Shown here piece after piece: positions 8,441 to 28,131 of a stretch of DNA of 45,189 nt. The notes beneath the pieces are model-generated. The model was not told the DNA's origin. It saw nothing but the letters and a program-made list of their open reading frames with translations, and searched no databases. The stretch lies in IMG/VR virus record IMGVR_UViG_3300045988_017593, positions 1 through 45,189 of that record, one strand, 5' to 3'. Source of the DNA: a virus. Within the stretch, counting starts at the first letter, position 1. Every line of letters begins with the position of its first letter. Made by a program: the position numbers and the translations under genes.

Positions 8441-8443
8441 GTC

Positions 8444-8698
8444 GTGAACGCCCACGGGTACATCCCGATCCCGCTGGCAGAAGCGTCCTGCATCATCGCG
8501 CACCTGTTTGTCGAGCTGGCCCAGCCCTGCTCCTGCTGCGAGCGGGGTGACGGCCTGATCGTTATTCAGGGCACCGCCTACGACGGCACCGGCGCGAGGA
8601 TCACCATCAAAGGCGAGGAGGTGAGATACTACGGCAAGCAACGGACACTCGAGGTCATACGAGCGGGCAAGTGTAGGCCGCCCGCCCTTCGGCCGTGA
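8444..8698 (+). CDS. Hypothetical small protein
   Basis: GTG-initiated 84-aa ORF with high GC3 but no clear SD. Confidence 0.35.
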   Translation: MNAHGYIPIPLAEASCIIAHLFVELAQPCSCCERGDGLIVIQGTAYDGTGARITIKGEEVRYYGKQRTLEVIRAGKCRPPALRP

Positions 8699-8711
8699 GA
8701 AGCTCCCGGAG

Positions 8712-9101: not shown

Positions 9102-9136
9102 AACCGCAGCCCCGTGGGGTACGCCTTGTTTTTTCG

Positions 9137-9231
9137 TGCCGGGTCGGCCAACAACGCCCGCAACGTCAACACCGATGGCACGCTGAACAGGAACAACGCC
9201 TACAACGGCAACAACGGCCTGCGCCCCGCTT
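9137..9231 (+). other. DGR template repeat (TR)
   Basis: 95 nt aligned by hand to 11211-11305 and, from 9153, to 21346-21424. In the VR reading frame it contains 10 AAC codons and 25 adenines. It ends in GC-rich GGCCTGCGCCCCGCTT. Confidence 0.9.
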
Positions 9232-9254
9232 CGATGGAGAGCTCGACTTATTAA

Positions 9255-9271
9255 CCGCCCGCGGAGGGCGG
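9255..9271 (+). other. Hairpin in the TR-RT spacer (CCGCCC-GCGGA-GGGCGG)
   Basis: Perfect 6-bp GC stem read directly. Confidence 0.5.
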
Positions 9272-9327
9272 CGAACACTATGCACCATCATCCAAGGAAG
9301 GCGTATCCCTCCCGCAGCCTGCGCCGT

Positions 9328-9344
9328 ATGACCGGCGCGGTCAT
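9328..9344 (+). other. Hairpin in the TR-RT spacer (ATGACC-GGCGC-GGTCAT)
   Basis: Perfect 6-bp stem read directly. Confidence 0.5.
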
Positions 9345-9425
9345 GGGTAAACACAGGACTGCTGATGCGGCCGGCGGCGCACGCAAAGCGTGGCCGGAGC
9401 TATCCACGGCAGGGAAAATTTAATC

Positions 9426-10601: not shown

Positions 10602-12267
10602 GTTCGGCAGCCTTCACGGCAAGCCGATCATCTGGATCGTGGCAGACAAAAACCACGCCGGCTACCCCTCGGGCAGCGTCACCCTCGTGACCAATCAGAT
10701 CATCAAGATGCTCTGCTTCGATGCAAAGGAGAGCTCCAACGGAAACAGCGACCGCAAAAGCTACGGCAACAACCGCTACATCCACTCCAACATCCGGCAG
10801 TGGCTCAACAGCTCCGCAGCAGCAGGCGCGTGGTACACTGCGCAGCACTCCGCTGACGCACCTCCCTCCTCTGCGAACGTCTGGAGCAGCACCAACGCCT
10901 ACGACACGATCGCCGGCTTCCTGAACGCCTTCACCGCAAACGAGCGGGCCGCCCTTCTGGACACCACCATCACGGTCGGCAAGAGCTCCACAGATGGTGG
11001 CGGGACTGAGACCTGCACCGACAAGATCTTCCTCCTGTCCTGCACTGAGGTCAACCTCTCCGGCGACCACACCTGCGGCAGCAAGCTGGCGATCTTCAGC
11101 GACAACGCGAGCCGCGTCGCTACCGTGACCGCTGAGTGCGTCGCAAACTCCAACTACTCCAGCAACCCAGCCTCCGGGGCTGCGTGGTACTACTGGCTGC
11201 GCGACGCCTATGCCGGGTCGGCCAACATCGCCCGCGGCGTCTACACCGATGGCACGCTGCACTGGAACCGCGCCTACTACGGCTACTACGGCCTGCGCCC
11301 CGCTTGTAATCTGTCCTCTGATCTCCTGATCTCCGACTCCACCGACTCGGATGGCTGCTACACGGTCATCTACAATCAGGCCCCGACTGCGCCGGCTTCC
11401 ATCACCGTCCCGACTGAGGTGATCGGCGGCGAAAACCTGAGCATCTCGTGGGGCCAGAGCACCGACGCCGACGGCAACCTGAGCGGCTACACCCTCGAGC
11501 GCAAGTATGATAGCGGCACATGGACGCAGATCTACAAAGGCGCCGCCCGCAGCTACTCCGACCCCATCACCTACGGATGGACGAGCGTGCAGTACCGCGT
11601 CAAGGCATACGACACCGCAGGCGCCGAGTCCGCATACACGACCAGCGCGACCCGCAACGTCATCAACAACCGCGCACCCGTCATCAGCGGCAGCGACGGA
11701 GATCTCGGCAGCTACACCGCGGCGCCTCCCGCCTTCGACTATACCGTCACCGACGCCGACGGCCATCAGGTCACAGTCGTCGAGAAACTGGATGGCACGA
11801 AGATCAAGGAGTACACCGTAACGCTCGGCGAGGCCAACAGCTTCGCGATCAGTGCGGAGACGTGGCAGAAGATCCTCAACGGATCCCACACCATCACCAT
11901 CACCGCCACCGACGCGAAGAACGTGAGCGCCGTGAGGGCTATGACCTTCACCAAAGCGGTCAACGCCGTCGAGTTCGAGCAGACCCTCGCCATGGCCGCG
12001 GATGATATGCCGACCAAGGCGCTCGTCAACGTGCAGGGCCACTTCCCGACAGGCTGCACTCTGACGATCTGGATCTGCAACAACGGCAACGACGCAGCGC
12101 CCGCATGGGAGGACATCACCAACAAGGCCCTCAACGGGACGAAGCACTTCTTCACCAACACCGCCAAGACAGCCGATGCGTGGGGCGTGAAGATCAAGGT
12201 CAAGCTCCTGCGCGGATCTGCGACCGAGACCTGCTACATCCAGAGCGTCGGCGGTAACTTCGCATAA
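10558..12267 (+). CDS. DGR target protein 1: N-terminal C-type-lectin-fold variable domain, then FN3/Ig-like domains (probable receptor-binding tail fibre component)
   Basis: VR encodes residues about 218-250, ending in GLRPAC. Downstream, PTAPASITVP...LSISWGQSTDADGNLSGYTLERKYDSGTWTQIY...YRVKAYD is FN3-like. SD AAAGGAGACAACACACATG. The start overlaps the RT 3' end by 44 nt. Confidence 0.85.
   Translation: MAQKLSNLANKAKVKFGSLHGKPIIWIVADKNHAGYPSGSVTLVTNQIIKMLCFDAKESSNGNSDRKSYGNNRYIHSNIRQWLNSSAAAGAWYTAQHSADAPPSSANVWSSTNAYDTIAGFLNAFTANERAALLDTTITVGKSSTDGGGTETCTDKIFLLSCTEVNLSGDHTCGSKLAIFSDNASRVATVTAECVANSNYSSNPASGAAWYYWLRDAYAGSANIARGVYTDGTLHWNRAYYGYYGLRPACNLSSDLLISDSTDSDGCYTVIYNQAPTAPASITVPTEVIGGENLSISWGQSTDADGNLSGYTLERKYDSGTWTQIYKGAARSYSDPITYGWTSVQYRVKAYDTAGAESAYTTSATRNVINNRAPVISGSDGDLGSYTAAPPAFDYTVTDADGHQVTVVEKLDGTKIKEYTVTLGEANSFAISAETWQKILNGSHTITITATDAKNVSAVRAMTFTKAVNAVEFEQTLAMAADDMPTKALVNVQGHFPTGCTLTIWICNNGNDAAPAWEDITNKALNGTKHFFTNTAKTADAWGVKIKVKLLRGSATETCYIQSVGGNFA
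11211..11305 (+). repeat. DGR variable repeat 1 (VR1)
   Basis: 95-nt hand alignment to TR gives 11 mismatches, every one at a TR adenine (e.g. AAC to ATC, GGC, TAC, CAC, CGC; AGG to TGG). In frame with the target ORF. Confidence 0.9.
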
Positions 12268-13668: not shown

Positions 13669-15153
13669 ATGGCACTACAAGGAAAAACCAACGAGGAGCG
13701 GATCTGGTACTTCCTCCGCTCCAAGGGGCTCAGCGACTACGGCGTGGCCGGTCTGATGGGTAATCTCTACGCAGAGAGCGCCCTGCGCCCCGAAAATCTT
13801 CAGAACACCTACGAGAAAAAGCTCGGCATGACTGACGCCGAGTACACCGCGGCCGTCGACTCCGGCGCCTATGCCGGCTTCGTCCGCGACTCCGCAGGCT
13901 ACGGTCTGGCGCAGTGGACATACTGGTCGCGCAAGGAGGGTCTGCTGGCCTTCGCGAAGGCTGCCGGCAAGTCCATCGGCGACCTCGAGATGCAGCTCGG
14001 CTTCCTCTGGAAAGAGCTGAGCGAGGGCTACAAGGGCGTCCTCAACGTCCTGAAGGCGGCCACCAGCGTCAGACAGGCATCCGACAAGGTGCTGACAGAC
14101 TTCGAGAGACCGGCCGACCAGAGCGAGACCGCCAAGGTGCGCCGGGCGTCCTACGGACAGAAATACCTCGACAAATACGCAGCGAAACCCTCGCAGAACG
14201 GAGGCACGACCATGAAATGCACCGCGCCCAACCTGATCGCCATCGCCGTCGCTGAGATCGGATACATGGAGAAGGAAACCAACGCGCAGCTCGACAACAA
14301 GACCGCCAACGCCGGCGACGAGGACTACACCAAATACTCCCGAGACCTGCGGGCTGCCGGCTACTACAACGGCAACAAGCAGGGCTTCGCGTGGTGCGAC
14401 GTTTTCGTCGACTGGTGTTTCTTCCAGCTCTGCGGAGGCGACGCCAAGAAGGCGCAGGAGGTCGAGTGTCAGACCGGCGACTGCGGCGCCGGCTGCAAGT
14501 TCTCGATGCAGTATTATCAGCAGGCCGGCCGTCTGTTTGACGACCCCGAGCCCGGCGATCAGATATTCTTCACCCGCAACGGATCCATCACCCACACAGG
14601 CATCGTGGAGACCGTGAGCAGCACCAAGATCACCACCATCGAGGGCAACACCAGCAACGTCGTCGCCCGCCGCACCTATAACCGCAGCGACCCCTACATC
14701 AAGGCATACGGCCGCCCGAGATATGACGGCAGCGCCGCGACCGTGAAGCCATCCACCGGCACGCCTGAGCCTGCTCAGCCTACCGGCGAGCAGGTCTACA
14801 CTGTCGTCAGAGGCGACACCCTGAGCGGGATCGCGGCCAAGTTCGGCACCACCTACCAGAAGCTCGCCACCTACAACGGCATCACCAACGTCAACATGAT
14901 CCGCGTGGGTCAGAAGATCAAGATCCCCGGCACTGCCGGCGGTGAGATCAAGGTCGGCGACGTGGTGCAGTTCGCCGGCGGGCCTCACTACACCAGCGCA
15001 AACGCCGCCACCGCCAAGACATCACCGAAGGCGGGCCCCGCCAAGGTGACGGCCATCAGCAAGAGCGGTAAGCACCCCTATCACATCATCCACACCACCA
15101 GCGCCTCCACCGTCTACGGATGGGTCGACGCTGACAAAATCACGAAGGTCTAA
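13669..15153 (+). CDS. Multidomain endolysin (lysozyme-like N-terminus, CHAP, LysM, SH3-like)
   Basis: GLMGNLYAESALRPENLQ...GYGLAQWT (phage lysozyme-like); GFAWCDVFVDW...ITHTGIVE (CHAP Cys/His); YTVVRGDTLSGIAAKFGTTYQKLATYNGI (LysM); C-terminal SH3-like segment. Confidence 0.85.
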   Translation: MALQGKTNEERIWYFLRSKGLSDYGVAGLMGNLYAESALRPENLQNTYEKKLGMTDAEYTAAVDSGAYAGFVRDSAGYGLAQWTYWSRKEGLLAFAKAAGKSIGDLEMQLGFLWKELSEGYKGVLNVLKAATSVRQASDKVLTDFERPADQSETAKVRRASYGQKYLDKYAAKPSQNGGTTMKCTAPNLIAIAVAEIGYMEKETNAQLDNKTANAGDEDYTKYSRDLRAAGYYNGNKQGFAWCDVFVDWCFFQLCGGDAKKAQEVECQTGDCGAGCKFSMQYYQQAGRLFDDPEPGDQIFFTRNGSITHTGIVETVSSTKITTIEGNTSNVVARRTYNRSDPYIKAYGRPRYDGSAATVKPSTGTPEPAQPTGEQVYTVVRGDTLSGIAAKFGTTYQKLATYNGITNVNMIRVGQKIKIPGTAGGEIKVGDVVQFAGGPHYTSANAATAKTSPKAGPAKVTAISKSGKHPYHIIHTTSASTVYGWVDADKITKV

Positions 15154-15824: not shown

Positions 15825-15860
15825 GAAAAACCCGCCCGGGATCCCCGGGCGGGCTTTTTT
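15825..15860. terminator. Bidirectional rho-independent terminator
   Basis: GAAAAA-CCCGCCCGGG-ATC-CCCGGGCGGG-CTTTTTT lies between convergent genes ending at 15816 (+) and 15865 (-). Confidence 0.85.
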
Positions 15861-15864
15861 ACGT

Positions 15865-16647
15865 TTATAGGACTTTTTGTTGCTTCAGGAAGTCAGCGGC
15901 GGCTTTATAGACCTTCGTGCCTCTGTTCGGCCCTCTGAAGTCATCGACCTCACGGCCTTCCAGCGACTTCAGCAGCGCAGGATCCGCGGCCAGACACTCG
16001 CCGCAGGCCGTCAGCCGGTCGTACACCGGCAGCAGGCGGGGATCCGTCATGCGGCCGCCATTTTCCTGAAGATAGACCGCGTAGGCATACAGCTCACCGA
16101 TCTGCGGCCCCTTCATCTGGCTGACCATATAACCGAGCAGGGCCTCGGCTCCGACAAAGCGGGAAAACTTCACGCCGGCGGCGTGCGCATACCGAGAGAG
16201 GCCGGGATCTGGCGCAGCTTCGTCCTCATCGACGATCCGGCTGATGATGGCACTGAGGTCATCCTTGCAGGCTCCCTCGGGGATCATGGCCTCAAGCTCC
16301 AGCGCGTAGTCCATTTGGCGCTCGGTCGGCTCCACCTGCTGCTCGATCTCAACGGTCAGAGGCTCGACCAGCCCGTCAGCCACAGCCGCAGCTCTGGCAG
16401 CGGCCTCGTCCTGCATCTCGTATCGCTTCGTATTTTTTCGGCCGGTACTGCCGTTCACGCCGGACACACGAAAGCGACCGAAGTTCACAAAGCCGCCCGA
16501 GGGGCTCACATACCCGCCGACGTCGGCCAGCGGCATCTCGCCGGGCGTGCGCTGCTTCACCTCCACCTCGACAACCTTCAGCTCGCTACGCACCGTGATC
16601 GGCGCCGGAGCGGGCTCTTTTTTCTTAAACAGGTCAAAAATGCCCAT
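15865..16647 (-). CDS. Hypothetical protein, the only credible minus-strand gene (lysogeny-expressed moron candidate)
   Basis: ATG at 16647 (MGIFDLFKKK...) follows GGAGGATAAC on the minus strand. 260 aa. Internal PTERQMDYALELEAMIPEG...LSAIISRI motif. No family recognised. Confidence 0.7.
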   Translation of the reverse strand: MGIFDLFKKKEPAPAPITVRSELKVVEVEVKQRTPGEMPLADVGGYVSPSGGFVNFGRFRVSGVNGSTGRKNTKRYEMQDEAAARAAAVADGLVEPLTVEIEQQVEPTERQMDYALELEAMIPEGACKDDLSAIISRIVDEDEAAPDPGLSRYAHAAGVKFSRFVGAEALLGYMVSQMKGPQIGELYAYAVYLQENGGRMTDPRLLPVYDRLTACGECLAADPALLKSLEGREVDDFRGPNRGTKVYKAAADFLKQQKVL

Positions 16648-16692
16648 GTTATCCTCCTTCCAGATGACCACCTCACGTTTTTCGTCTTTAGT

Positions 16693-16760
16693 CATCTTTG
16701 GGATAATTTTATCACGAAAATGGCAGTATAGTCAATGTGGTCTACCCATCTTTGGGATAA
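16693..16760. promoter_or_regulatory. Divergent control region: two 14-bp direct repeats CATCTTTGGGATAA plus palindrome GATAATTTTATC
   Basis: Exact repeats at 16693-16706 and 16747-16760. Palindrome at 16702-16713. The region is an AT-rich island in a GC-rich genome. Confidence 0.55.
16706..16735 (-). promoter_or_regulatory. Candidate leftward promoter (TTGACT - 18 nt - TAAAAT on the minus strand)
   Basis: The -35 complement AGTCAA is at 16730-16735 and the -10 complement ATTTTA at 16706-16711. The -10 overlaps the first direct repeat. Confidence 0.4.
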
Positions 16761-17057: not shown

Positions 17058-17087
17058 TTGACATTATAGAGCATTTGCTCTATAATA
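17058..17087 (+). promoter_or_regulatory. Consensus sigma-A/sigma-70 promoter (TTGACA - 17 nt - TATAAT) overlapped by a perfect 25-bp palindrome
   Basis: TTGACA at 17058-17063 and TATAAT at 17081-17086. Palindrome ATTATAGAGCA-TTT-TGCTCTATAAT at 17063-17087. Confidence 0.75.
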
Positions 17088-17444: not shown

Positions 17445-18503
17445 ATGAAAAAAGCAAAAACAGAGCCAAAATTCAAGCACATGAGCTTCACCGATCGCAT
17501 CCGACTGGAGGAGAAAATCAAGGCCGGCAAAACCAAGCAGCAGGCGGCCGACGAGCTCGGCTTCCACGTCAGCACCATCTACCGGGAGCTGAAGCGCGGC
17601 ACCTATGAGCACCTGAACAGTGACTACACCACCGAGATCAGGTACAGCCCGGACATCGCCGACGCCAACTACCGGCAAAACCTGAAGGCCAAGGGCGCCC
17701 CGATCAAGCTCGGGAACGACTACGCCCTCGCGGAATACATCGAGACGAAGATCGCCGACGAGAAGTACAGCCCCGGCGCCGTCCTCGGAGAGATCAAGCG
17801 CCTCGGCCTCGAGTTCTCTGTCACGATCAGCAAGCCGACCCTCTACCGCTACATCGAGCTCGGAGTGTTCGGCCGGATCACCAACGCAGACCTCCCGGAG
17901 AAGTCCAAGAAGAAGCAGACCAAGCGCAAGGTCAGAGTCTCCCGGCCGCCCGCGGGCGAGAGCATCGAAAACCGTCCGGCCGAAGTCGACGATCGCAACA
18001 CCTTCGGTCACTGGGAGATGGACACCGTCGTCAGTGCCGGCCACGCAAAAGAGACGCTGCTGGTGCTGACCGAGCGCCTCACCCGCCACGAGTTCATGAT
18101 CCTCATGCCAGATCGGACGGCGGCCAGCGTCGTGAAGGCACTCAACCGCATCGAGTGGAAGTTCGGCAAGCACTTCCCGGAGATCTTCAAGACCATCACC
18201 TGCGACAACGGCGTCGAGTTCTCTGACTGCTATGGTCTCGAGAAGAAGCGCCGCGGCAAAGGCAAGCGCACCAAGATCTACTACTGCCACCCTTACAGCT
18301 CCTACGAGCGAGGAAGCAACGAGAAACAAAACAGAATGATCCGGCGATGGCTGCCGAAGGGCACCAGCTTCGCCAGCGTCGACGCGAAGGAGGTCGCCCG
18401 GATCGAGGCGTGGCTCAACAACTACCCCCGCGAGATCTTCGGCTTCGAGACCTCTGCCGCTCTTTTTGAGCGGCATCTGGAGGTCATTTTAAGGGCTGCA
18501 TAA
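17445..18503 (+). CDS. IS30-family DDE transposase
   Basis: N-terminal HTH (AADELGFHVSTIYRELKRG) and a catalytic core with FGHWEMDTV..., TITCDNGVEF and YSSYERGSNEKQNRMIRRWLPKG, typical of IS30 transposases. GC3 usage is like the rest of the phage. Confidence 0.85.
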   Translation: MKKAKTEPKFKHMSFTDRIRLEEKIKAGKTKQQAADELGFHVSTIYRELKRGTYEHLNSDYTTEIRYSPDIADANYRQNLKAKGAPIKLGNDYALAEYIETKIADEKYSPGAVLGEIKRLGLEFSVTISKPTLYRYIELGVFGRITNADLPEKSKKKQTKRKVRVSRPPAGESIENRPAEVDDRNTFGHWEMDTVVSAGHAKETLLVLTERLTRHEFMILMPDRTAASVVKALNRIEWKFGKHFPEIFKTITCDNGVEFSDCYGLEKKRRGKGKRTKIYYCHPYSSYERGSNEKQNRMIRRWLPKGTSFASVDAKEVARIEAWLNNYPREIFGFETSAALFERHLEVILRAA

Positions 18504-18520: not shown

Positions 18521-18571
18521 TCGCGATAACTACTTGACAAGTCGAGTGTCCAGTAATATAATTATCGCGAG
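18521..18571 (+). promoter_or_regulatory. Consensus promoter (TTGACA - 17 nt - TATAAT) bracketed by inverted repeats TCGCGATAA / TTATCGCGA
   Basis: TTGACA at 18534-18539 and TATAAT at 18557-18562. Inverted repeat arms at 18521-18529 and 18563-18571. A further TCGCGAT copy at 18602-18608. Confidence 0.7.
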
Positions 18572-18654: not shown

Positions 18655-18933
18655 GTGAAAGCCTACAAATACCTGAGCCTGCAAGACCGCCAGCAGTTCG
18701 AGCGAGACTACGCAGCCGGCGCCAGAGTCGCCGACATCGCAGAAAGCCTCGGGATCCACACAGCCACAGCCTATGCGGAGCTGGCCCGCGGCACAGTCCT
18801 CGACGAGTATGGCGAGCCCGCCCTCGACCAGAACGGTCGGCAGGCATACAGCGCGGACGTCGCGCAGCTAAAAGTACAGGAGGGGCTCAGACGCAGGGGC
18901 AAGCGCCACACAGCGGCCGCGGCCCACTCATAA
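18655..18933 (+). CDS. Stand-alone HTH protein resembling the N-terminal DNA-binding region of the adjacent IS30 transposase
   Basis: LSLQDRQQFERDYAAGARVADIAESLGIHTATAYAELARGT...YSADVAQLK parallels the transposase residues FTDRIRLEEKIKAGKTKQQAADELGFHVSTIYRELKRGT...YSPDIADAN. GTG follows GGAAAGGAGG. Confidence 0.65.
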   Translation: MKAYKYLSLQDRQQFERDYAAGARVADIAESLGIHTATAYAELARGTVLDEYGEPALDQNGRQAYSADVAQLKVQEGLRRRGKRHTAAAAHS

Positions 18934-20434: not shown

Positions 20435-20750
20435 GATCACAATGCAGCAGAGCGATCTCGGCCTACATATCGACCCCGATGTCATGCAGGAGATCCTCGA
20501 CGCCTTCCACCAGATCGGCGAGAAGCTGAAGGAGATGGCCGAGGCCATCATCAAAGCAGTGAGGGCCGCCGCGGAGTGGGCGGCTAAAACCGCCCGCCGC
20601 TTCATCGAGAGCATCGCCGCCGGCGTCGTGCCCGGGAAATGGCTGCACCTCGCGAAACACGCCAAGAAGCTCAGGACGCGCAAGAAGTACCGCCGCCGGA
20701 TCTGGAGGGCTCTGATCGCAGCCCTCGCCGAAGGAGGTGGCAGCTCATGA
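20427..20750 (+). CDS. Hypothetical helical, basic early protein
   Basis: GTG lies 9 nt after GAGGAGG. 107 aa. Confidence 0.5.
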   Translation: MSEITMQQSDLGLHIDPDVMQEILDAFHQIGEKLKEMAEAIIKAVRAAAEWAAKTARRFIESIAAGVVPGKWLHLAKHAKKLRTRKKYRRRIWRALIAALAEGGGSS

Positions 20751-20926
20751 CCGCGAAGTGCGTCGGCTGCGGCCTCGACTGGAATGTCAGCATATACCAG
20801 AAGATCCCGGCCACCGGCTACATCTGCCCGCACTGCGAGAGCAAGCTGAGAGCCGGCGCCACCCTGAAGCAGATCCAAGCCGAGCCGAGAGGCCGGCGCC
20901 CATATACGAAAGGAGCAAAACCATGA
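20747..20926 (+). CDS. Small zinc-ribbon protein
   Basis: CVGCG...17 residues...CPHC. ATG overlaps the upstream stop. Confidence 0.5.
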   Translation: MTAKCVGCGLDWNVSIYQKIPATGYICPHCESKLRAGATLKQIQAEPRGRRPYTKGAKP

Positions 20927-21618
20927 AGAAAGCACTCAAGAGCAGCCCCCGCGGCGCGGCCTTCACCTTCGCAGGCCAGCGCTGGATCGTGCTGGAACAT
21001 GACCCCGCAGGCCGTACCCTCTGCCTGACCGAGAACATCGTCGAGGAGAAAGCCTTCGACGTCGACAACTGCAACAACTTCGCCAAGGCCAGCAGCAACG
21101 CCTACCTGAACGGCCCCTTCCTCGACAACCTGCACGAAGCAGCCGGCGGCAACGCCGGGGCCTTCCTCCGCAGCGAGCTCGATCTGACCGCCGATGACGG
21201 CCTGAAGCACTACGGCACCTGCAACGTCACCATCTTCCTCCTGACCGTCGACCAGTACCGCCGCAACCGCGACGTGATCCCCAACGCAGACGACTGGTGG
21301 TGGCTCTCCACTGCGGTCAGCACTGCCGAGAATGGGTACGAGCATAGCGCCCGCCGCGTCTACGCCGATGGCGCGCTGGGCGGGGACGGCGCCTACTACG
21401 GCGGCCTCGGCCTGCGCCCCGCTTGTTATCTGGACTCCGATCTCCTGATCTCCCTCGACGAGGAGGACGTCGCTGCCGATCAGGCGGGTGAGATCGTCAA
21501 GGAGCTGGCTGAGGAGCTGGGCGGCACATTTGCCACCGCGGATCAGCTCAAGGCGGCCGCTGCCTTCATGTTCGGCACCCTGAGAGCAGCCCGCGATCAG
21601 GAGGTGGCCCATGAGTAA
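20923..21618 (+). CDS. DGR target protein 2 (231 aa), a paralogue of the target 1 N-terminal variable domain, located in the early operon
   Basis: Shares with target 1: RWIVLEH / IIWIVADK, NAYLNG / RQWLNS, TIFLLT / KIFLLS, WWWL / WYYWL and GLRPAC.L.SDLLIS. Carries VR2. No signal peptide or TM seen. Start and stop both overlap neighbouring genes. Confidence 0.85.
   Translation: MKKALKSSPRGAAFTFAGQRWIVLEHDPAGRTLCLTENIVEEKAFDVDNCNNFAKASSNAYLNGPFLDNLHEAAGGNAGAFLRSELDLTADDGLKHYGTCNVTIFLLTVDQYRRNRDVIPNADDWWWLSTAVSTAENGYEHSARRVYADGALGGDGAYYGGLGLRPACYLDSDLLISLDEEDVAADQAGEIVKELAEELGGTFATADQLKAAAAFMFGTLRAARDQEVAHE
21346..21424 (+). repeat. DGR variable repeat 2 (VR2)
   Basis: 79-nt hand alignment to TR 9153-9231 gives 17 mismatches, all at TR adenines. 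Same reading frame relative to TR as VR1. The identical GC-rich 3' end GGCCTGCGCCCCGCTT is present. Confidence 0.88.
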
Positions 21619-22321
21619 CCTGAGCAGCCTGCTGGACAAGTACAAGGCCCTCGTCATCTTCGACACAGAGACCAGTGGCCTCGAGCCGGACAAGCACCAG
21701 ATCATCGAGCTGGCCGCCCTCAGAGTGGAGCGCACCGCCTCCGGGGCCCTGCGCATCGCCGGCAAGATGGACAGCTTCATCAAGCTGCCGGAGGGCGAGA
21801 AACTGGACGAGAACATCACCGCCCTCACCGGCATCACCGACCGCACCCTTCAGACTGAGGGCGTACAGCCGGCGAAGGCAGCCGGACAGATCGCGAAGCT
21901 GATGCAGCCCGGCCCTGTCCTGATGGTAGCCCATAATGCACAGTTCGACGCCTGCTTCCTGCGTGGCCTGCTGCGTGGCGTGAAGATCGGCCGGATCGAC
22001 TGGCTCGACAGTCTGACTGTCTACAAAGACCGCCGGCCATACCCGCACAAGCTCGCCAACGCGATCCTCGCCTACGAGCTCGAGGACAAGGTGCAGAACA
22101 GCCACCGGGCCATCGACGACGTGCTGGCGCTGTTCGAGGTGCTGAAGGCGATGGACGAGGAGCGCAGCGATCTCGCTGCCTACGTCAACCTGTTCGGCTA
22201 CAACCCGAAGTACGGCGTCAGCGGCCGCCGGATCACCGGCGTCAGATACGAGCCGCAGAGCTTCATCAAAACCATGACCCGGCCTGAGCAAACACTCCCG
22301 GCCAAGATCGCCCGGAGGTGA
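21611..22321 (+). CDS. DEDDh 3'-5' exonuclease (DnaQ / Pol III epsilon-like)
   Basis: VIFDTETSGL (Exo I), MVAHNAQFDACFL (Exo II) and HRAIDDV (Exo III). Confidence 0.85.
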   Translation: MSNLSSLLDKYKALVIFDTETSGLEPDKHQIIELAALRVERTASGALRIAGKMDSFIKLPEGEKLDENITALTGITDRTLQTEGVQPAKAAGQIAKLMQPGPVLMVAHNAQFDACFLRGLLRGVKIGRIDWLDSLTVYKDRRPYPHKLANAILAYELEDKVQNSHRAIDDVLALFEVLKAMDEERSDLAAYVNLFGYNPKYGVSGRRITGVRYEPQSFIKTMTRPEQTLPAKIARR

Positions 22322-22613: not shown

Positions 22614-23315
22614 ATGGAAGCCATGACACAAAAAAGAGGCTACCCGCTGCAACAGGTAGCCCCCGCGAGAATACCATCAAGCCAGCCAGCTCACGGATCC
22701 CGCACCCGAAGTATAGCACAAAAAAAGCGCCGCGCCAAGTACCGCCGCCGCAGGATCATCGCGCTGCTGATCCTGATCGCCGTCCTGATCGCCCTCGTGT
22801 GGGGCGTGGCATCTCTTGTGAGGATCATCTGGAACGCAGCAGCAGCCGAGATCCCGGACGTCAGCACCAGCACCCCGATCGTGGTGGAACGGCCGATCAT
22901 CAGCACCACCAGCGCTCCGGCCGCCACGGCGACACCAGCCGCACGCTACACTCTGACCGCCGAGGAACGTGACACGGTCGAGCGCGTAGTCATGGCAGAA
23001 GCCGGCGGCGAGTCCTTCGAGGGCAAGATGCTGGTCGCCCAGTGCATACTCACAGCAACCGAAAAGACCGGCCTCCAGCCGTCGGAGGTCGTCGTCAAAT
23101 ACAAATACACCGCCAGTCGCCCGGAGCCCTCTCAGAGCGTGAAGGACGCCGTCGCCGCAGTGTTTGACCGTGGCGAGCTCGTCGTGGACGAGCCTGTCAT
23201 GTATTTCTATAACCCCGCCATCGTCGAGAGCGAGTGGCACGAGAGCCAGATCTTCGTCATCGAAGTCGGCGGCCACCGCTTCTTCGCAGAAAGGAGCCAA
23301 AACAATGAGCGATAA
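22614..23315 (+). CDS. Membrane-anchored cell-wall hydrolase (SleB / Hydrolase_2-like)
   Basis: TM segment IIALLILIAVLIALVWGV, then ERVVMAEAGGESFEGKMLVAQCILT...VMYFYNP...W, typical of the SleB-type family. Confidence 0.7.
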   Translation: MEAMTQKRGYPLQQVAPARIPSSQPAHGSRTRSIAQKKRRAKYRRRRIIALLILIAVLIALVWGVASLVRIIWNAAAAEIPDVSTSTPIVVERPIISTTSAPAATATPAARYTLTAEERDTVERVVMAEAGGESFEGKMLVAQCILTATEKTGLQPSEVVVKYKYTASRPEPSQSVKDAVAAVFDRGELVVDEPVMYFYNPAIVESEWHESQIFVIEVGGHRFFAERSQNNER

Positions 23316-23943
23316 AACCACCGCGGCGATCGCCGCAGAACAGGCCGCAGCAGCCGAGGAAGTCTCGGGAGCTCAAGAGGCCACCCCGCTGCCGTCCGTT
23401 ACCCTCGAGGAGCTGGAACAGTTCGACATCGGCTCCATCGAGCCGGAGGAGCGCCCGCCCTTCAGGATCACCGACGACCGCTGCGCTGACTGGGCCGTCC
23501 GCAAGATCAACGAGGAGCGCAGCGAGTACGAGCGCCTGAAGGAGCTCGGCGAGCAGCAGATCGCGGCCATACAGGACAAGCTCGCCGCAGCAGAGCGGCG
23601 CTACAACAACGGCACCGCCTTCCTGACATCTTGCCTCGCCGACTTCTTCCAGACTGTTCCCCACAAGAAAACCAAGACGACCGAGAAGTACCGCCTCCTC
23701 TCTGGCACCCTCACCCTGAAAAAGGGAGCCCCGAAGGCTACCGTCGACGACGAGAAGCTGGTGCCGTGGCTGAGGGCCAACGGCTTCGGGGACTTCGTCA
23801 AGACCACTGAGTCGGCCAAGTGGGGCGAGCTGAAGAAGAAGGTCATGCTCGTCGGATCCGTCGCCACCATCGAGGAGACCGGCGAGATCATCGAAGGCAT
23901 CACCGTCACAGAGACCCCGGACACCTTCAGGGTCGAAGCATAA
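23305..23943 (+). CDS. Host-nuclease inhibitor Gam-like protein (Mu Gam family)
   Basis: ITDDRCADWAVRKINEERSEYERLKELGEQQIAAIQDKL...YRLLSGTLTLKK...KLVPWL pattern. Located upstream of Erf and SSB. Confidence 0.6.
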   Translation: MSDKTTAAIAAEQAAAAEEVSGAQEATPLPSVTLEELEQFDIGSIEPEERPPFRITDDRCADWAVRKINEERSEYERLKELGEQQIAAIQDKLAAAERRYNNGTAFLTSCLADFFQTVPHKKTKTTEKYRLLSGTLTLKKGAPKATVDDEKLVPWLRANGFGDFVKTTESAKWGELKKKVMLVGSVATIEETGEIIEGITVTETPDTFRVEA

Positions 23944-23955
23944 AGGAGGCACAGC

Positions 23956-24777
23956 ATGGCAGAGAACACAAAGAAACCCGCCGGCGAACAGCCGGCCGCT
24001 GCCGCCGATCAGGCTGAGCCCGTTGCGAGCTGTCTGTCCCTTCGGCAGAAGCTCGTTGAAATGCGGAAAGCCTGCCCGGAGATCGTGAAGAAGCAGCACA
24101 GCGACGGCGTCAGCTACAAGTACGCCAAGATCTACGACGTGTGGGAGAAGATCACCCCGATCATGAACGCTCTCGGCGTCGACTTCGATGTCATCCGCGA
24201 GGAGGCCACGAAGCACAGCGACAACGGCGACCCGCTCTACTGGATCACCATGCAGACCAAGACGAGGAACGGCGACAAGCTCATGTTCCTCTATGAGGCC
24301 GACCTGACGATCCGCTGGACAAATCTCAATAACGAGGACGAGACCATCGAGGCCACGATCCACGCCCTCGGCTGGAACGATGACCCGGCCAAGGCCAAAG
24401 GCGCGGCCCACACCTACGCCCTGAAATACTACCTTTTCGAGAAGTTCACCGTCGACCAAGGCGAGGACGATCCTGACAACAGTGACTTCAGCGCACAGGG
24501 CAAAGGATCCAGCGGATCCGGCAGCCAGCAGCAGCGGAGCCAGCAAGGTCAGCAACGTCAGGGCACCGGCAAGCTCAGCGACGCTCAACTCGGCCGGCTC
24601 TATAAGAAGGCCGAAGCCGCCGGTATGACCAAGGAGCGCACCGACGCCCGCATCCTCGAGAAATACAAGAAGCAGGATCCCGCCACCCTGAGCCGTCAGG
24701 AGTACGACGAGATCTGCGCATCCCTCGACGCTGCGGCAGCACAGCACAACCAGCAAGGAGGTCAGCAGAATGTATAA
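23956..24777 (+). CDS. ERF-family single-strand annealing protein
   Basis: VSYKYAKIYDVWEKITPIMNALGV...AKGAAHTYALKYYLFEKF is typical of the ERF superfamily. Confidence 0.75.
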   Translation: MAENTKKPAGEQPAAAADQAEPVASCLSLRQKLVEMRKACPEIVKKQHSDGVSYKYAKIYDVWEKITPIMNALGVDFDVIREEATKHSDNGDPLYWITMQTKTRNGDKLMFLYEADLTIRWTNLNNEDETIEATIHALGWNDDPAKAKGAAHTYALKYYLFEKFTVDQGEDDPDNSDFSAQGKGSSGSGSQQQRSQQGQQRQGTGKLSDAQLGRLYKKAEAAGMTKERTDARILEKYKKQDPATLSRQEYDEICASLDAAAAQHNQQGGQQNV

Positions 24778-25189
24778 CCATGTAGGACTTCAGGGCCGGC
24801 TCACGGCCGACCCTGAGCTCAGATATACCGCGCAGGGCACAGCGATCACCAGCTTCACCCTCGCGAGCGATACCGGCCGAAAAACGGCCAACGGGGACAG
24901 GATCACCCACTTCATCGACTGCGTGGCGTGGCGCCAGCAGGCCGAGTTTGTCAGCAAGTACCTCAGCAAGGGCCGCCTCGTGATCGTCGAGGGCGAGCTC
25001 GGCAGTCGCAGCTATGAGGACAAGGACGGAAACCGCCGCAAGGCCGTCGAGATCACCGTCAGGAGCATCCACTTCAGCGACAGCAAGAAGGACGGCCAGA
25101 GCGCCGGTCAGCAGGGCCAGAGCGACGACTTCGCCTGCCCGGATGGCTTCACGGAGGTGCCGCTCAATGACGACGACCTTCCCTTCTAA
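24770..25189 (+). CDS. ssb: Single-stranded DNA-binding protein
   Basis: OB-fold N-terminus MYNHVGLQGRLTADPELRYT and an acidic tip DDDLPF. Confidence 0.9.
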   Translation: MYNHVGLQGRLTADPELRYTAQGTAITSFTLASDTGRKTANGDRITHFIDCVAWRQQAEFVSKYLSKGRLVIVEGELGSRSYEDKDGNRRKAVEITVRSIHFSDSKKDGQSAGQQGQSDDFACPDGFTEVPLNDDDLPF

Positions 25190-25264
25190 CCAAACCGCCG
25201 GACAACCGGCGGCTGACCAAATAGCAGCCACGACAATGCGACCACACGAAAGGAGGTGACGACC

Positions 25265-26113
25265 GTGGCATGGATCCAAGTGCATCAGACCCTAAAAGAT
25301 CACCGCAAGCTCTACGACGCAGCCGACGAGCTCGAGGTAACCCCGCCTCACATGATGGGGCTGCTGATCTCCTTCTGGCTGTGGGCCCTCGACAACGCCC
25401 CCACGGGGCAGCTCACCGGCATCACGCCGCGCATGATCGCTCGGGCCGCTCAGTATGATGGCCCGGCCGAAAAGCTGGCCGGAGCGCTGATCCGGGCCGG
25501 CTGGCTGGATGAAAAAGAGGACGGAGACCTCGAGATCCACGACTGGTACGAGTACGCCGGCAAGCTGATCGACCAGAGGCAGGCCGAAAAAGAGCGCTCA
25601 CAGCGCCGCCGCGCTGCTGCCTCCGCGGCCGCCCGCGAAACTCCCGACGACCACCAAACGCCCGGCGGTCGTCCGAAGGGGGGCCGAAAGAAAACCGCAG
25701 GCAGAGTAGACCAGACCAGAGAAGATAACACCAGAGAAGGTAAAGACCCCCCTTCCCCCTCTGGCGAGGGGGCTGACGGCGACAAGCCGACGGCCATCGA
25801 AGTCAGATTTGCCGAGTTCTGGAAGGAATATCCGAAGAAGGTCGCCAAGGCGACAGCCCTGAAGGCATGGAAACGCCTGAAGCCGACCGCCGAGCTGCAT
25901 GACGCCATCATGCACGCTCTGGACGAGCAAAAGCGGACGGAGCAGTGGCGCCGGGAGAACGGTCGCTTCATTCCAAACCCGGCCACATGGCTCAACGGCG
26001 GCTACTGGGAGAACGAGGTCGAGGAGGTGACAGTGGATGAAGCAGATCGGAGAGATCCTGAAGGCGACGACGCCGGCCGAAACTGGACGAAGGGCTTCAA
26101 GTCTGACGACTGA
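25265..26113 (+). CDS. Replication initiation / replisome organiser-like protein
   Basis: Lies upstream of the DnaC-like loader. C-terminal FAEFWKEYPKKVAKATALKAWKRL...NPATWLNGGYWENE motif is common in phage replication proteins. GTG 25265 lies 9 nt after AGGAGG. Confidence 0.55.
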   Translation: MAWIQVHQTLKDHRKLYDAADELEVTPPHMMGLLISFWLWALDNAPTGQLTGITPRMIARAAQYDGPAEKLAGALIRAGWLDEKEDGDLEIHDWYEYAGKLIDQRQAEKERSQRRRAAASAAARETPDDHQTPGGRPKGGRKKTAGRVDQTREDNTREGKDPPSPSGEGADGDKPTAIEVRFAEFWKEYPKKVAKATALKAWKRLKPTAELHDAIMHALDEQKRTEQWRRENGRFIPNPATWLNGGYWENEVEEVTVDEADRRDPEGDDAGRNWTKGFKSDD

Positions 26114-27011
26114 GCCGGACGATGACACGAGCATCAACTTCAACGTCAGAAGCGACTCCCCTGAGTATGCCGGCAAGCCCGGCACCCCCGACCCGGTCGC
26201 CTGCGAGTTCTGCGGGGCCCCTCGATACCACAAGGGGATCAAGTTCTGCGGGCGGGTAACGTGGATGCCATACGGCGCCGAGCGCTGCACCTGTCCCGAG
26301 GCTGTGGCTGCCTACGAGAAAGTGGAAGCAGAACGCCGAGCCCGGGAAGAAGCCGAGCGAAAGGCTGAAGAAGATCGCCGGCTGCGCGAGAAGATCCAGA
26401 AGATCATCGGCGAGTCGGGCATGGGTGAGCGCTTCCTGCGCCGCACCTTCGACAGCTTCCAGATCACCGAGAACAACCGAAAGGCAGCCGCGACAGCCAA
26501 GAGATACGCCGACGCCTTCGACGATCTGCTGCCGAAACGTGGAGGGCCGGAGCCCGGCCGCAACGGTCTGTTTATCGCAGGGCCACCCGGCACCGGCAAG
26601 ACTCACCTCGCCGCTGCCATCGCCAATCACCTGATCCGGCAGGGCCGCCCGGTCGTCTGCATGACCATGATCGACCTACTGGAGCGCATCAGGCGCACAT
26701 ACTCCCGCAGCGACGTCGACGAGGGCAGCGTGCTGAAGCTCTACAAGAGCGTCCCGCTCCTCGTGATCGACGACATCGGGAAGGAGCCGCCGACAGAGTG
26801 GGCGATCTCGACCATTTACAGCATCATCAACGGCCGCTACGAGGCATACCTGCCGACCATAGTGACCACCAACTACGACACCGAGACCCTGATCCGACGC
26901 ATGACACCGAAGGACACCGGGGACAACACCACGGCGCGGGCCACCATCGACCGGCTGATGGAAATGTGCAGAGCCATCGCCCTCACCGGCGAGAGCTGGC
27001 GCCAGAAATAG
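26037..27011 (+). CDS. DnaC/IstB-like AAA+ helicase loader
   Basis: Walker A GPPGTGKTHL, Walker B LLVIDDIG and TTNY. Confidence 0.85.
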   Translation: MKQIGEILKATTPAETGRRASSLTTEPDDDTSINFNVRSDSPEYAGKPGTPDPVACEFCGAPRYHKGIKFCGRVTWMPYGAERCTCPEAVAAYEKVEAERRAREEAERKAEEDRRLREKIQKIIGESGMGERFLRRTFDSFQITENNRKAAATAKRYADAFDDLLPKRGGPEPGRNGLFIAGPPGTGKTHLAAAIANHLIRQGRPVVCMTMIDLLERIRRTYSRSDVDEGSVLKLYKSVPLLVIDDIGKEPPTEWAISTIYSIINGRYEAYLPTIVTTNYDTETLIRRMTPKDTGDNTTARATIDRLMEMCRAIALTGESWRQK

Positions 27012-27020
27012 GAGGACAGC

Positions 27021-27539
27021 ATGAAAAAAGTCTATATTTGCTCCCCCTGCCGCGGGGACTACGAGAACAACATCCAGAGAGCCAAGGAATACAGCCGCGC
27101 CGCAGCGATGCAGGGCTGCATCCCCATCACCCCTCACATATTCCTGACGCAGTTCATGGACGACACCATCCCGGCCGAGCGTGAGCTGGCGCTGAGCATG
27201 GGCCGCGAGCTGGTGCTCATGTGCTCCGAGCTGTGGGCCTTCGGGCTCGACCACCCCTCTGCCGGCATGGCTGTTGAGATCGAGCTTGCCAAGGAGCGCG
27301 GGATCCCCGTCCTCAACGGCTTCGAGGCCATCAGCAAGATCGGAGATCCTGAGCCTGAAGCTGAGGAGCTGCCTGAGATCGGCGGCGTGACCATCCACCT
27401 GCCGACGCCGCCCGGCTTCGGGCCCGGATCTGTCAGCGTGGAGCTCGACGGCAACATCATCCTCGACATCGCCGACCGCCTGCGAATGGATCCCGGGACT
27501 CACTTCGAGATCGGCCCGGGAGGTGACAGTTGTGACTAA
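27021..27539 (+). CDS. DUF4406 / nucleoside 2-deoxyribosyltransferase-like protein
   Basis: MKKVYICSPCRGD...IPITPHIF...CSELWAFG...SAGMAVEIELAKERGIPV pattern. Confidence 0.55.
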   Translation: MKKVYICSPCRGDYENNIQRAKEYSRAAAMQGCIPITPHIFLTQFMDDTIPAERELALSMGRELVLMCSELWAFGLDHPSAGMAVEIELAKERGIPVLNGFEAISKIGDPEPEAEELPEIGGVTIHLPTPPGFGPGSVSVELDGNIILDIADRLRMDPGTHFEIGPGGDSCD

Positions 27540-28131
27540 CCGCTACGACCCACGCAAAAACGCCGAAGGCTATCGCGACCCGACGCCCTACGAGGCCGAG
27601 AAGAACATCCGGCGCCAGATCACCGGGCAGCGCTCAAGAGTCGCCGGGGAGCACTTCGAGAACATGATCTCAGCCTCCTGCGACTACTACCTCGAGCGCG
27701 GGATCGCCAAGATCGAAAAGACGCCGGAGCCGATGAAGCCGCTCGGCGCCAAAAACCGCAAGGGGCAGTTCATGGCCTGCTACACCAAGCAGGCGCAGCC
27801 TGACTACGGCGGCACCCTGAAGGGCGGTCGGAGCATCTACTTCGAGGCGAAGCACACGGACGACGACCGCATCGAGCAGCGCCGACTCACCCAAGAGCAG
27901 CAGGATGACCTCGAGGCCCACCACCGCCTCGGCGCTCTCTCCTTCGTGCTGGTCAGCTTCGGCCTCTGCGACTTCTACCGCGTCCCGTGGCCGGTATGGA
28001 GGGACATGGCCGAAACATACGGCCGCAAGTACATCAAGCAGGCCGAGCTCGAGCGCTATGAGGTGCCGGCCGTGGCCGGGTACATCAAACTGCTGGACGG
28101 CATCGAGATCCCCGGGGAGGTGACGCCATGA
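27532..28131 (+). CDS. recU: RecU-type Holliday junction resolvase
   Basis: GEHFENMISASCDYYLERGIAKIEKTPEP...DYGGTLKGGRSIYFEAKHT matches RecU signatures. Confidence 0.75.
   Translation: MTNRYDPRKNAEGYRDPTPYEAEKNIRRQITGQRSRVAGEHFENMISASCDYYLERGIAKIEKTPEPMKPLGAKNRKGQFMACYTKQAQPDYGGTLKGGRSIYFEAKHTDDDRIEQRRLTQEQQDDLEAHHRLGALSFVLVSFGLCDFYRVPWPVWRDMAETYGRKYIKQAELERYEVPAVAGYIKLLDGIEIPGEVTP

Follow-up and report, generated by a model that had tools for sequence, protein, structure and literature searches.

Two-target DGRs in gut phages and the locus under study

Phage DGR biology has so far been framed almost wholly around receptor-binding proteins and host range. A DGR with two targets was described for phage nd4 (GenBank OR777945), in which a 569-aa tentaclin, tgt1, is accompanied by a small DUF6273 protein, tgt2 (Baykov et al. 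2023; PMC10743442). In that work, tgt2 is counted in the "cassette" as an Mtd-like receptor binder, and its early-operon position is not discussed. Pairs of a large and a small DUF6273 target were also reported for Toutatis-like, Lelie and CP11 Faecalibacterium phages (PMC11792537; bioRxiv 10.1101/2024.10.15.618418). The protein was modelled as C-lec-like, and a receptor-binding role similar to that of Mtd was proposed for it (PMC10743442; 10.1101/2024.10.15.618418). The two-VR case of Roseburia phage Shimadzu was considered as a parallel and rejected, as its targets are Mtd-like and belong to another family.

Mtd of BPP-1 is a 381-aa trimeric tail-fibre tip composed of a beta-prism and a beta-sandwich (PMC10743442), and its gene is located in the cassette beside the tail genes. 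Cellular DGRs are known to diversify intracellular proteins, such as the STAND-NTPase-linked putative antigen sensors of multicellular bacteria (PMC10907252), which provide a precedent for variable domains acting on intracellular ligands. Compared by description, these are chromosomal multi-domain conflict proteins, whereas the small phage targets are single-domain products of ~200-230 aa encoded in early operons. A literature search for early-gene or anti-defence DGR targets in phages returned nothing relevant.

The DNA analysed here, referred to as the window, is the 45,189-nt IMG/VR record IMGVR_UViG_3300045988_017593 and belongs to an nd4-like gut phage. In both nd4 and the window, the order Avd-TR-RT-tentaclin is found (with a tentaclin of 569 aa in each), and the small target gene lies ~10 kb downstream, directly before a gene for a DnaQ-like exonuclease. 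The two are separate species whose VR sequences differ; over a 24-kb stretch, 54% can be aligned, with a nucleotide identity of 81%. The first-pass annotation had implied that the second target was novel, which does not hold, since the same two-target DGR is already published for nd4 (PMC10743442). The new element is the consistent early-operon position of the small target. Toutatisviruses resemble the window in using one TR for two VRs and in carrying the small target in the core genome, remote from the RT. In FP_Toutatis, it is found 17.5 kb from the RT between regulators and the replication initiator, and the VR of this protein (gp24, 101 nt) has 13 mismatches, all at adenines. The Toutatis small target differs from that of the window in sequence (~30% identity), in having one C-terminal helix instead of two, and in its neighbours.

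Template use and natural diversity of the second variable repeat

All features described below are on the plus strand. The Avd accessory gene (8712-9101; phrog_3206 'Avd protein of DGR', 1.8e-26) and the reverse transcriptase gene (9390-10601; RVT_1, 1e-13; phrog_1423, 5e-117) enclose the template repeat at 9137-9231. Target 1 (10558-12267; 569 aa; DUF6273, 1e-40; phrog_10993, 2e-246) is a tentaclin/Hoc-like protein in which Ig-like domains come after a DUF6273 domain at the N-terminus. The phrog_10993 match spans its full length, in agreement with the definition of tentaclins. VR1, located inside this gene at 11211-11305, draws on the whole TR and differs from it at 11 positions, exclusively adenines.

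The gene at 20923-21618 (target 2) had been proposed as a second, remote DGR target, and the alignment bears this out. VR2 (21346-21424) aligns with TR 9153-9231 over 79 nt without gaps, and all 17 mismatches fall on the 23 TR adenines of this stretch, with 0 of its 56 non-adenine positions changed. The probability that 17 random mismatches would all land on adenines is 1.3e-12. Non-adenine mismatches, which would have spoken against the claim, are absent within this span; immediately 5' of TR 9153 the homology breaks, with 5 non-adenine mismatches in 12 nt. Every one of the 23 adenines occupies codon position 1 or 2, and nine AAC codons are present. The annotated identity of codon phase between VR1 and VR2 was also confirmed, both beginning in phase 0. 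Target 2 is a genuine second target of the phage's single DGR, 12.2 kb from the TR.

The rewritten part of VR2 extends from 21355 to 21407 and is followed at 21408-21424 by the GC-rich 3' end GGCCTGCGCCCCGCTT, which is invariant and common to TR, VR1 and VR2, as the annotation had stated. VR2 corresponds to only the 3' two-thirds of the TR (from 9153 or 9162 to 9231), so that the rewritten stretch begins after the GCCCGC block. Downstream, ~29 nt at 21425-21453 resemble the VR1 flank at 11306-11334 and are unlike the TR; in the TR/VR1/VR2 alignment, this flank contains a 15-nt block, GATCTCCTGATCTCC, that is identical between the two VRs. By analogy with the IMH of BPP-1, this VR-specific flank may serve in homing. 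A downstream hairpin or cruciform of the BPP-1 type is not known to be universal among DGRs. The search for a stable structure of this kind 3' of the VRs yielded only an imperfect inverted repeat at 21444-21484 with 76% complementarity, and the folding energy in these regions did not differ from that of shuffled sequences (z = -0.67 for VR2 and -0.45 for VR1).

VR2 was found to be diversified at present and independently of VR1, as had been suggested: 82 natural variants contain 78 distinct VR2 sequences. Entropy among them reaches 1.50 bits in the columns of TR adenines, against 0.07 in the remaining columns of the VR and 0.29 beyond it, which contradicts an invariant relic. A relative with 95% identity differs by 18 nt, 16 of which are within VR2, all of these at adenine sites. 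The first codon of the annotated VR2 (21346-21348) is biallelic and lineage-linked, not hypervariable. Residues at the variable positions are skewed, with 18.5% Tyr and no Pro or Ala, and this usage is consistent with selection on function.

The small target protein and its early-gene surroundings

The product of target 2, 231 aa in length, is a small stand-alone DUF6273 protein, putatively C-lec-like and orthologous to nd4 tgt2 (66% identity), with profile matches to Pfam DUF6273 (1e-8) and phrog_9958 (2e-63). Its AF2 model (pLDDT 76.5) has one globular domain and C-terminal helices at residues 185-198 and 206-227, corresponding to the DUF6273 domain with flanking helices described for nd4 tgt2 (PMC10743442). 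Full-length homology, a length in the ~200-300 aa range, the single DUF6273 domain, the flanking helices and a VR derived from the tentaclin's TR place the protein in the nd4-type tgt2 class. The Ig-like domain required of tentaclins was absent from both the profile search and the model, and the model has no beta-prism, trimerisation or other virion-anchoring domain. The annotation had called the protein a paralogue of the target 1 variable domain; the similarity is real and essentially restricted to the region of the VR, where it amounts to 53% across 53 aa.

The best PDB match of the model is the N-terminal DUF6273 domain of the T. ramosa IgA peptidase (9qa6, E 2.4e-5), to which the IgA-peptidase paper assigns no function. 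Beyond this domain, the Foldseek search of the PDB gave only noise, and neither Mtd nor TvpA was matched. The viral-library fold search returned only other, unreliably named DUF6273 proteins and thus no functional lead, and PADLOC defence models did not match target 2 or its neighbours of no assigned function. Mtd and target 2 are alike in being varied by a DGR near the C-terminus, in the AAC-rich TR codons and in the GC-rich/IMH-type 3' boundary. Unlike Mtd, target 2 is encoded outside the tail module, and it has neither the Mtd domains nor an N-terminal part for trimerisation and tail attachment.

Signal peptide and TM segments are absent from target 2 (maximum 19-residue hydropathy 0.82), as annotated. 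The label "apparently cytoplasmic" cannot be derived from this, because target 1 likewise lacks a signal peptide and the feature does not separate cytoplasmic from virion proteins.

A perfect sigma-70 consensus (12/12, by consensus scan only) at 18534-18562 is the predicted promoter heading the target 2 operon. The translational coupling noted earlier was confirmed: the target 2 gene overlaps the upstream stop via ATGA and the downstream start by 8 nt. The upstream gene (20639-20926) encodes a small zinc-ribbon-like protein of 95 aa (phrog_6107, 1.5e-17), for which the annotated zinc-binding character comes down to a sub-threshold treble-clef zinc-finger match (zf_Tbcl). The downstream DnaQ-like 3'-5' exonuclease (21611-22321; RNase_T, 3.6e-21; phrog_192) was identified correctly. 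The rest of the early module (22614-28131) comprises a SleB-like Hydrolase_2, whose gene is the second one 3' of target 2, Gam, Erf, SSB, a replication initiator, a DnaC-like loader, the nucleoside-deoxyribosyltransferase-like DUF7768 protein (27021-27539; 5.7e-37) and RusA. Target 2 thus lies within an early recombination-replication operon, and every virion gene maps elsewhere in the window, as the annotation had held. The consensus scan revealed no terminator-like site on the plus strand between the promoter and 25500. The early/late boundary was not located, there being no convincing plus-strand terminator from 18.5 to 38 kb. Early and late genes run in the same direction on a single strand, and no strong terminator separates them, so that late read-through expression of target 2 is possible.

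The survey of related phages suggested by the first-pass annotation found the small target within the early operon throughout the lineages covered, at least six in number: nd4-like, nd12-like, Toutatisvirus, Brigitvirus, a Roseburia prophage and a class of Clostridia prophages. The early position together with an adenine-only VR was verified in nd4, nd12, FP_Toutatis (gp24) and FP_Brigit (gp06). The neighbours throughout are regulators, nucleases and replication genes, and among related nd4-like IMG/VR loci the DnaQ-like exonuclease gene directly follows the target in 64 of 76. An early or integration marker was present within 8 kb in 40 of the 58 Clostridia genome loci and a core structural marker in none, while a core structural marker flanked the target in 1 of 80 IMG/VR loci; the BLAST markers came from four phages only, and divergent structural genes may therefore escape these counts. 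A BLAST comparison of the early proteins of the window with the nd12 and Toutatis neighbourhoods found no conserved partner gene. The only matches were the target itself and an IS30-like transposase/HTH pair.

Tandem pairs of small targets occur in ~30 loci, and Avd/RT genes are located within 8 kb in 27 of the 58 Clostridia loci. In L123, the locus for which a detailed annotation was made, the DGR cassette and tandem small targets directly follow the CI/Cro switch and precede Sak and YqaJ. The gene between target and Avd in cassettes of this type was considered as a possible new partner; it proved to be another DUF6273 paralogue of the small type, itself a target. Some cassettes are adjoined by small targets alone. 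In each of the five phages examined, VR2 matched the TR over a shorter stretch than VR1 did. The small-target family forms 1080 clusters at 50% identity, single 90% clusters hold >20,000 natural variants, and the C-terminal amphipathic helix is conserved across four lineages.

The N-terminal fusion partners found in the family are DUF3310, DUF7768 and DUF4406, two of the three fusion types being known from one cluster representative each. Such partners are typical of early cytoplasmic phage proteins and are never Ig or tail modules. The DUF3310 fusion is the nd12 tgt2, with clusters of >10,000 members. DUF3310 occurs in SaV of a lactococcal phage, in T7 gp1.7 and in early cytotoxic mycobacteriophage genes, and the cited papers characterise the members of this family as cytoplasmic proteins that are expressed early and often harm the host through toxicity. 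The target 2 of the window has no DUF3310 itself, the link being a fusion in the sister lineage only. An upstream gene in 212-aa nd12-like variants without DUF3310 was considered as a split-off DUF3310 and rejected, having a weak MazG-like match only. In the Roseburia prophage, a DUF7768 homologue is N-terminal to the small DUF6273 target on 5 contigs. The DUF7768 protein of the window shares 37% identity over 98 aa (E 1e-19) with the N-terminus of this type of fusion (P0347), and its pairwise BLAST comparison with the DUF4406 partner was not significant.

Possible role of the small target

The gene context and the domain fusions favour an intracellular, non-virion target 2, which is the best-supported hypothesis for its role. 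The cassette bears the hallmark of cDNA that is copied from the TR, mutagenised at adenines and substituted for ~55-70 nt in both the tentaclin gene and the target 2 gene. The early promoter would drive target 2 along with the genes for the exonuclease, Gam, Erf, SSB and replication, and the product would stay out of the virion and act, as a single-domain protein, by binding a ligand inside the infected cell. This ligand would vary from one host strain to another, and DGR variation and selection would tune the variable loop of target 2 (residues ~145-162) to it; candidates would be a host factor, a competitor's protein or a defence protein. Taken as a whole, this proposal of a second, trans-acting, early-expressed and non-virion DGR target serving as an intracellular single-domain binder is regarded as somewhat probable. 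The binding of host intracellular or defence factors, which the first-pass annotation had put forward, is speculation.

The published hypothesis treats target 2 as a virion-associated receptor-binding or adhesion protein like BPP-1 Mtd, and is favoured by the authors of PMC10743442 and 10.1101/2024.10.15.618418. The protein would then be encoded outside the structural module, attached by its C-terminal helices and widen host or mucosal binding beside the tentaclin. The fold family and the TR are common to target 2 and the virion-type tentaclin, and one TR with a virion adhesin suits a common extracellular task. The Tyr-rich variable positions recall other binding sites, the helix conserved in four lineages could dock onto a virion protein, and no strong terminator splits early and late genes. 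Against this, core structural markers flank the gene in none of the 58 genome loci and in a single one of 80 IMG/VR loci, and regulators, nucleases and replication genes are constant neighbours in at least six lineages. The model has no trimerisation or anchoring domain and Foldseek no match to Mtd or TvpA; the fusions are only to cytoplasmic early domains, none to Ig or tail modules. Moreover, 98.8% of Toutatisviruses retain the gene, whereas only 68% possess the DGR (10.1101/2024.10.15.618418). A virion role is considered unlikely, while still deserving attention.

A soluble non-virion lectin for cell-wall or surface glycopolymers, binding precursors inside the cell or polymers after lysis, appears improbable. 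It might act with cell-wall hydrolases of the same operon, for example by masking receptors on debris or aiding release. The SleB-like hydrolase two genes downstream in the window, found also in nd12-like contigs, and the SLT transglycosylase in the early operon of the Roseburia prophage would agree with such a function. The hydrolase, however, is missing from the Toutatis, Brigit and L123-type contexts, target 2 lacks signal peptide, lipobox and TM segment, and fusions to nucleotide-metabolism-like domains do not suit a lectin. It is even harder to regard VR2 as a passive by-product mutagenised without benefit through retained homing signals, or as a decaying relic, and this explanation has very little probability. 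The match of VR2 to the TR, less extended than the VR1 match in each of the five phages, would be in line with it. The lack of any non-adenine difference to the TR at 56 positions, the very high population diversity restricted to adenine sites and the strongly non-random amino-acid use argue against it, as do the conservation of gene and VR across distant lineages and the cassettes adjoined by small targets only.

If small DUF6273 targets do act intracellularly, phages could acquire novel specificities inside the cell in only a few generations; their targets could lie in host defence or takeover, and the system would represent a phage-side counterpart of adaptive immunity. Should target 2 be located on the virion instead, a structural adhesin would be stably encoded in early operons, which is a less far-reaching outcome. 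A broader version of the intracellular proposal can be offered only tentatively and is open to some doubt. According to it, temperate phages of gut Clostridia would diversify a cytoplasmic early single-domain binder by DGR for host takeover or counter-defence, and one widespread prophage class, in which the whole DGR and two tandem small targets head the early operon, would be seemingly dedicated to this. The small-target family is frequent among Clostridia of the human and animal gut, and its cultured carriers include Butyricicoccus pullicaecorum DSM 23266, Petralouisia muris, Hominicoprocola fusiformis and Neglectibacter caecimuris, as well as Flavonifractor plautii VE303-08 (PMC10743442). 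As several carriers are cultured strains, the role of the small target is directly testable.

Diversification of target 2 in trans

Ungapped alignment of TR 9153-9231 with VR2 of target 2 (21346-21424) gives 17 mismatches; each falls on a TR adenine and the 56 non-adenine positions all match, as the first-pass annotation had claimed; the chance of such confinement is 1.3e-12. VR1 of target 1 (11211-11305) has 11 mismatches over 95 nt against TR, likewise adenine-only. The codon phase and 3' end proposed to be common to both repeats are indeed shared: VR1 and VR2 are in phase 0, the TR adenines all fall at codon positions 1 or 2 with nine AAC codons, and GGCCTGCGCCCCGCTT is present in TR, VR1 and VR2. 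Downstream of GGCCTGCGCCCCGCTT, VR1 and VR2 continue alike (GT[A/T]ATCTG...GATCTCCTGATCTCC) while TR diverges, as expected of an IMH/IMH* pair. VR2 homology stops 5' of TR 9153. It covers the 79 nt originally delimited, but active rewriting is limited to 21355-21407, the first codon of the claimed repeat being a two-state, lineage-linked difference. Target 2 had also been described as a paralogue of the target 1 variable domain; the VR regions are alike, but protein similarity is essentially restricted to them.

Variation in natural populations was assessed with an IMG/VR scan, which yielded 80 loci of target 2 relatives. Three relatives with 95% protein identity differ from the window gene at 18 nt, 16 of them within VR2 and all 16 at TR-adenine positions. 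Among 82 sequences, 78 distinct VR2 versions were present. Mean entropy per column was 1.50 bits at the 23 TR-adenine positions of the VR, against 0.07 at its 56 remaining positions and 0.29 beyond it. VR2 is thus variable across populations, and its interpretation as a decayed relic was rejected on this adenine-confined diversity. A protein-database search at E <= 1e-3 gave 963 relatives, and individual 90%-identity clusters exceed 1,000 members. Target 2 is firmly established as a real DGR target diversified in trans.

Its membership in the published tgt2 family is equally firm: it falls in phrog_9958 (2e-63) and is 66% identical to the phage nd4 protein. The gut phages nd4 and nd12 carry a two-target DGR, with a 569/579-aa 'tentaclin' (N-terminal DUF6273/C-lec domain plus Ig domains) and a small 'tgt2' of 234/294 aa containing DUF6273 alone between short helices (Baykov et al. 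2023, PMC10743442). Since the element has already been published, the earlier claim of a novel kind of element does not hold. The window and nd4 share the same synteny, with tgt2 immediately 5' of the DnaQ-like exonuclease, and 81% nucleotide identity where aligned (54% of a 24-kb stretch). DUF6273 targets termed 'large' and 'small' are known in Lelie and CP11, two phages of Faecalibacterium (Gulyaeva et al. 2024, PMC11792537) and in Toutatisviruses, where the small target is a core gene 17.5 kb from TR (2024 preprint, 10.1101/2024.10.15.618418). A role in binding receptors or the environment is suggested in all three papers, none of which discusses the module that houses the small-target gene.

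An early-operon site across lineages

The window is a circularly permuted genome of ~45 kb (62% GC) of a small myovirus-like temperate phage. The late genes begin with TerS (34911), TerL, portal, protease, major head protein and sheath, and resume past the window ends with tape measure (1140), baseplate (5616) and tail fibre (7691). These are followed by Avd (8712-9101), TR, RT (9390-10601), the 569-aa Hoc-like/tentaclin protein (10558-12267) and the endolysin (13669-15153). TR lies inside a short ORF (9114-9254) with gene-like GC3; in FP_Toutatis the corresponding stretch (gp80, 49048-49200 of locus L083) was given a CDS named 'DUF6273 domain-containing protein'. Since TR resembles the end of its targets, this is most likely an artefact of annotation. 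A strong plus-strand terminator (15831-15853) is followed by the sole clear minus-strand gene of the window (15865-16695, 276 aa, phrog_20233) and then by the early region. This gene points away from the early promoters and is preceded by a 10/12 promoter (16735-16706), in the place where a repressor is expected; neither a Pfam match nor a recognisable HTH was found in its product.

The early region contains HTH regulators (17075 and 19851), an IS30-like DDE transposase with HTH_38 and rve domains (17445-18503; phrog_4646, 3.6e-136), a 92-aa HTH_38 paralogue of its N-terminal HTH (18655-18933) and small unknown proteins preceding target 2. Downstream of target 2 are the DnaQ-like exonuclease, SleB-like hydrolase, Mu Gam, Erf, SSB and replication initiator, then a DnaC-like loader, a DUF7768 protein and RusA. 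A consensus scan placed a perfect sigma-70 promoter (12/12) at 18534-18562, and no plus-strand terminator-like site was found from there up to 25.5 kb. Target 2 has its own ribosome-binding site (AAAGGAG) and overlaps both neighbouring genes. Its location in an early-type operon, as first annotated, is firmly shown by gene content and consensus signals, while early timing of expression is inferred from them.

The transposase and its HTH paralogue each follow a 12/12 sigma-70 promoter (17058-17086 and 18534-18562), and nd12 retains both (59% identity). Since no tyrosine or serine integrase was found among the window genes scanned, the transposase may be the integration enzyme of the phage. The early operon also encodes a cell-wall hydrolase domain (22614-23315) distinct from the endolysin, as do three compared loci (L086 1038-1769, L087 2746-3477 and L148 5396-6136).

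The attention given to this context proved valuable. Early placement recurs across lineages. In nd4-like IMG/VR loci the exonuclease lies directly 3' of the target in 64/76, and a core structural marker occurs in the flank of only one of 80 loci. The nd12 tgt2 (78-nt VR, 15 adenine-only mismatches to TR) is at the end of the early region; FP_Toutatis gp24 (101 nt, 13 such mismatches) is between regulators, methyltransferases and the replication initiator; FP_Brigit gp06 (75 nt, 9 such mismatches) is the third gene after a cro-like regulator, with two exonucleases and RecT downstream. When one genome of each prokaryotic species was scanned, 58 small-target loci emerged, all in Clostridia, and the genes around them were classified by BLAST with annotated markers of four phages. 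With these markers, early or integration genes were found within 8 kb at 40 loci, Avd/RT at 27, and TerL, portal, major head, sheath, tape measure, baseplate or fibre at none. Early-operon placement is firmly shown to be a family-wide rule.

FP_Brigit (NC_047909) gp06 is annotated as hypothetical; its VR (L084 4371-4445) matches the TR (L089 32410-32484) with no non-adenine mismatches. This TR lies between Avd gp58 and RT gp59, and another VR is in the Hoc-like gp60, so the gp06 VR is the second. In the phages where both VRs were compared (window, nd12, Brigit), the small-target VR is shorter at its 5' side, corresponding to the 3' part of TR (about 70-78 nt, versus 95-127 nt in tentaclins), which implies that cDNA integrates at a different 5' point in each of the two targets.

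Fusion partners and an early-operon DGR class

Exhaustive searching across 1.84 billion cluster representatives found 1080 small-family clusters; of the 150 top-ranking ones, almost all measure 170-310 aa. N-terminally extended members include fusions to DUF7768, DUF4406 or DUF3310 (P0347, P0364 and P0378), and none of the members examined is fused to an Ig-like or tail domain, the architecture that defines late-operon tentaclins. The nd12 tgt2 has a complete N-terminal DUF3310 domain (2.5e-16). This architecture dominates its lineage, and two 90%-identity clusters (P0122 and P0123) of 10,131 and 23,439 distinct members indicate standing variation of the DUF3310-DUF6273 target in public metagenomes. 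Lactococcal SaV, whose domain is DUF3310, is an early and toxic protein tied to AbiV sensitivity; the domain is also tied to T7 gp1.7 and marks cytotoxic early genes of mycobacteriophages. The DUF7768 fusion (P0347, L148 8001-8897) was assembled on five contigs, and in a Roseburia prophage it lies between a CI-like repressor and the terminase, adjoining VRR_NUC and HNH genes.

The loci with Avd/RT nearby form a prophage class, the L123 type, in which the whole retroelement is at the head of the early operon. Locus L123, from an Oscillospiraceae MAG, has the order integrase (-), CI-like repressor (-), cro-like HTH (+), two tandem small DUF6273 genes (A and B), Avd, TR, RT, Sak recombinase and YqaJ exonuclease; the cassette (7905-10693) thus follows the CI/Cro switch and precedes the Sak/YqaJ/SSB genes. 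The VRs of genes A and B have 16 and 14 adenine-only mismatches and no others. The tandem pair occurs in about 30 loci among L109-L145, with TR-VR pairs confirmed in ten. No description of this arrangement was found in the literature searched, from which the consistent early-operon site and the fusion evidence are also absent.

Candidate functions of target 2

Target 2 is inferred to be expressed early and outside the virion and to act in the cytoplasm. This intracellular reading is somewhat favoured because of the early position across many lineages, the adjacency of early-operon DGR cassettes to small targets, the contrast between the fusion partners and those of tentaclins, and the absence of an anchoring domain in the structural model. 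In that AlphaFold2 model (51 homologues, mean pLDDT 76.5) there is a single globular alpha/beta domain together with two C-terminal helices, and confidence is lower in the VR loop region. Four lineages conserve a short amphipathic helix that comes after an acidic linker; L123-type proteins end immediately after the VR. Counted against the intracellular reading are the colinearity of early and late genes without a clear terminator, the possibly dockable C-terminal helix and the TR shared with a virion adhesin; a virion receptor-binder is a less probable but serious alternative. A wall or glycan lectin acting outside the virion is unlikely.

It is very improbable that VR2 is a neutral by-product. 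Residue use at AAC-templated codons is strongly biased: Tyr is over-represented at 18.5% and there is almost no Pro, Ala or Thr, a pattern that fits selection for a functional binding surface. At these codons within 21355-21407, A-to-C is frequent at position 1 (12-31 of the 82 sequences per site) and nearly absent at position 2 (0-1 of 82), which accounts for the missing Pro, Ala and Thr and the excess of Tyr. This pattern could be due to selection or to sequence-context bias of the RT.

Taken together, the early location, the early-operon DGR class and the fusions turn intracellular action of a phage DGR target into a concrete hypothesis that can be tested with cultured hosts. The anti-defence idea is speculative; it is compatible with the neighbourhood (Gam, methyltransferases and nucleotide-metabolism-like domains), and a PADLOC search found nothing for target 2 or its unknown neighbours. 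The separate DUF7768 protein in the target 2 operon (27021-27539) is annotated in PHROGs as nucleoside 2-deoxyribosyltransferase. The DUF7768 fusion partner matches it with 37% identity over 98 aa (E 1e-19), and a functional link between this gene and target 2 is possible.
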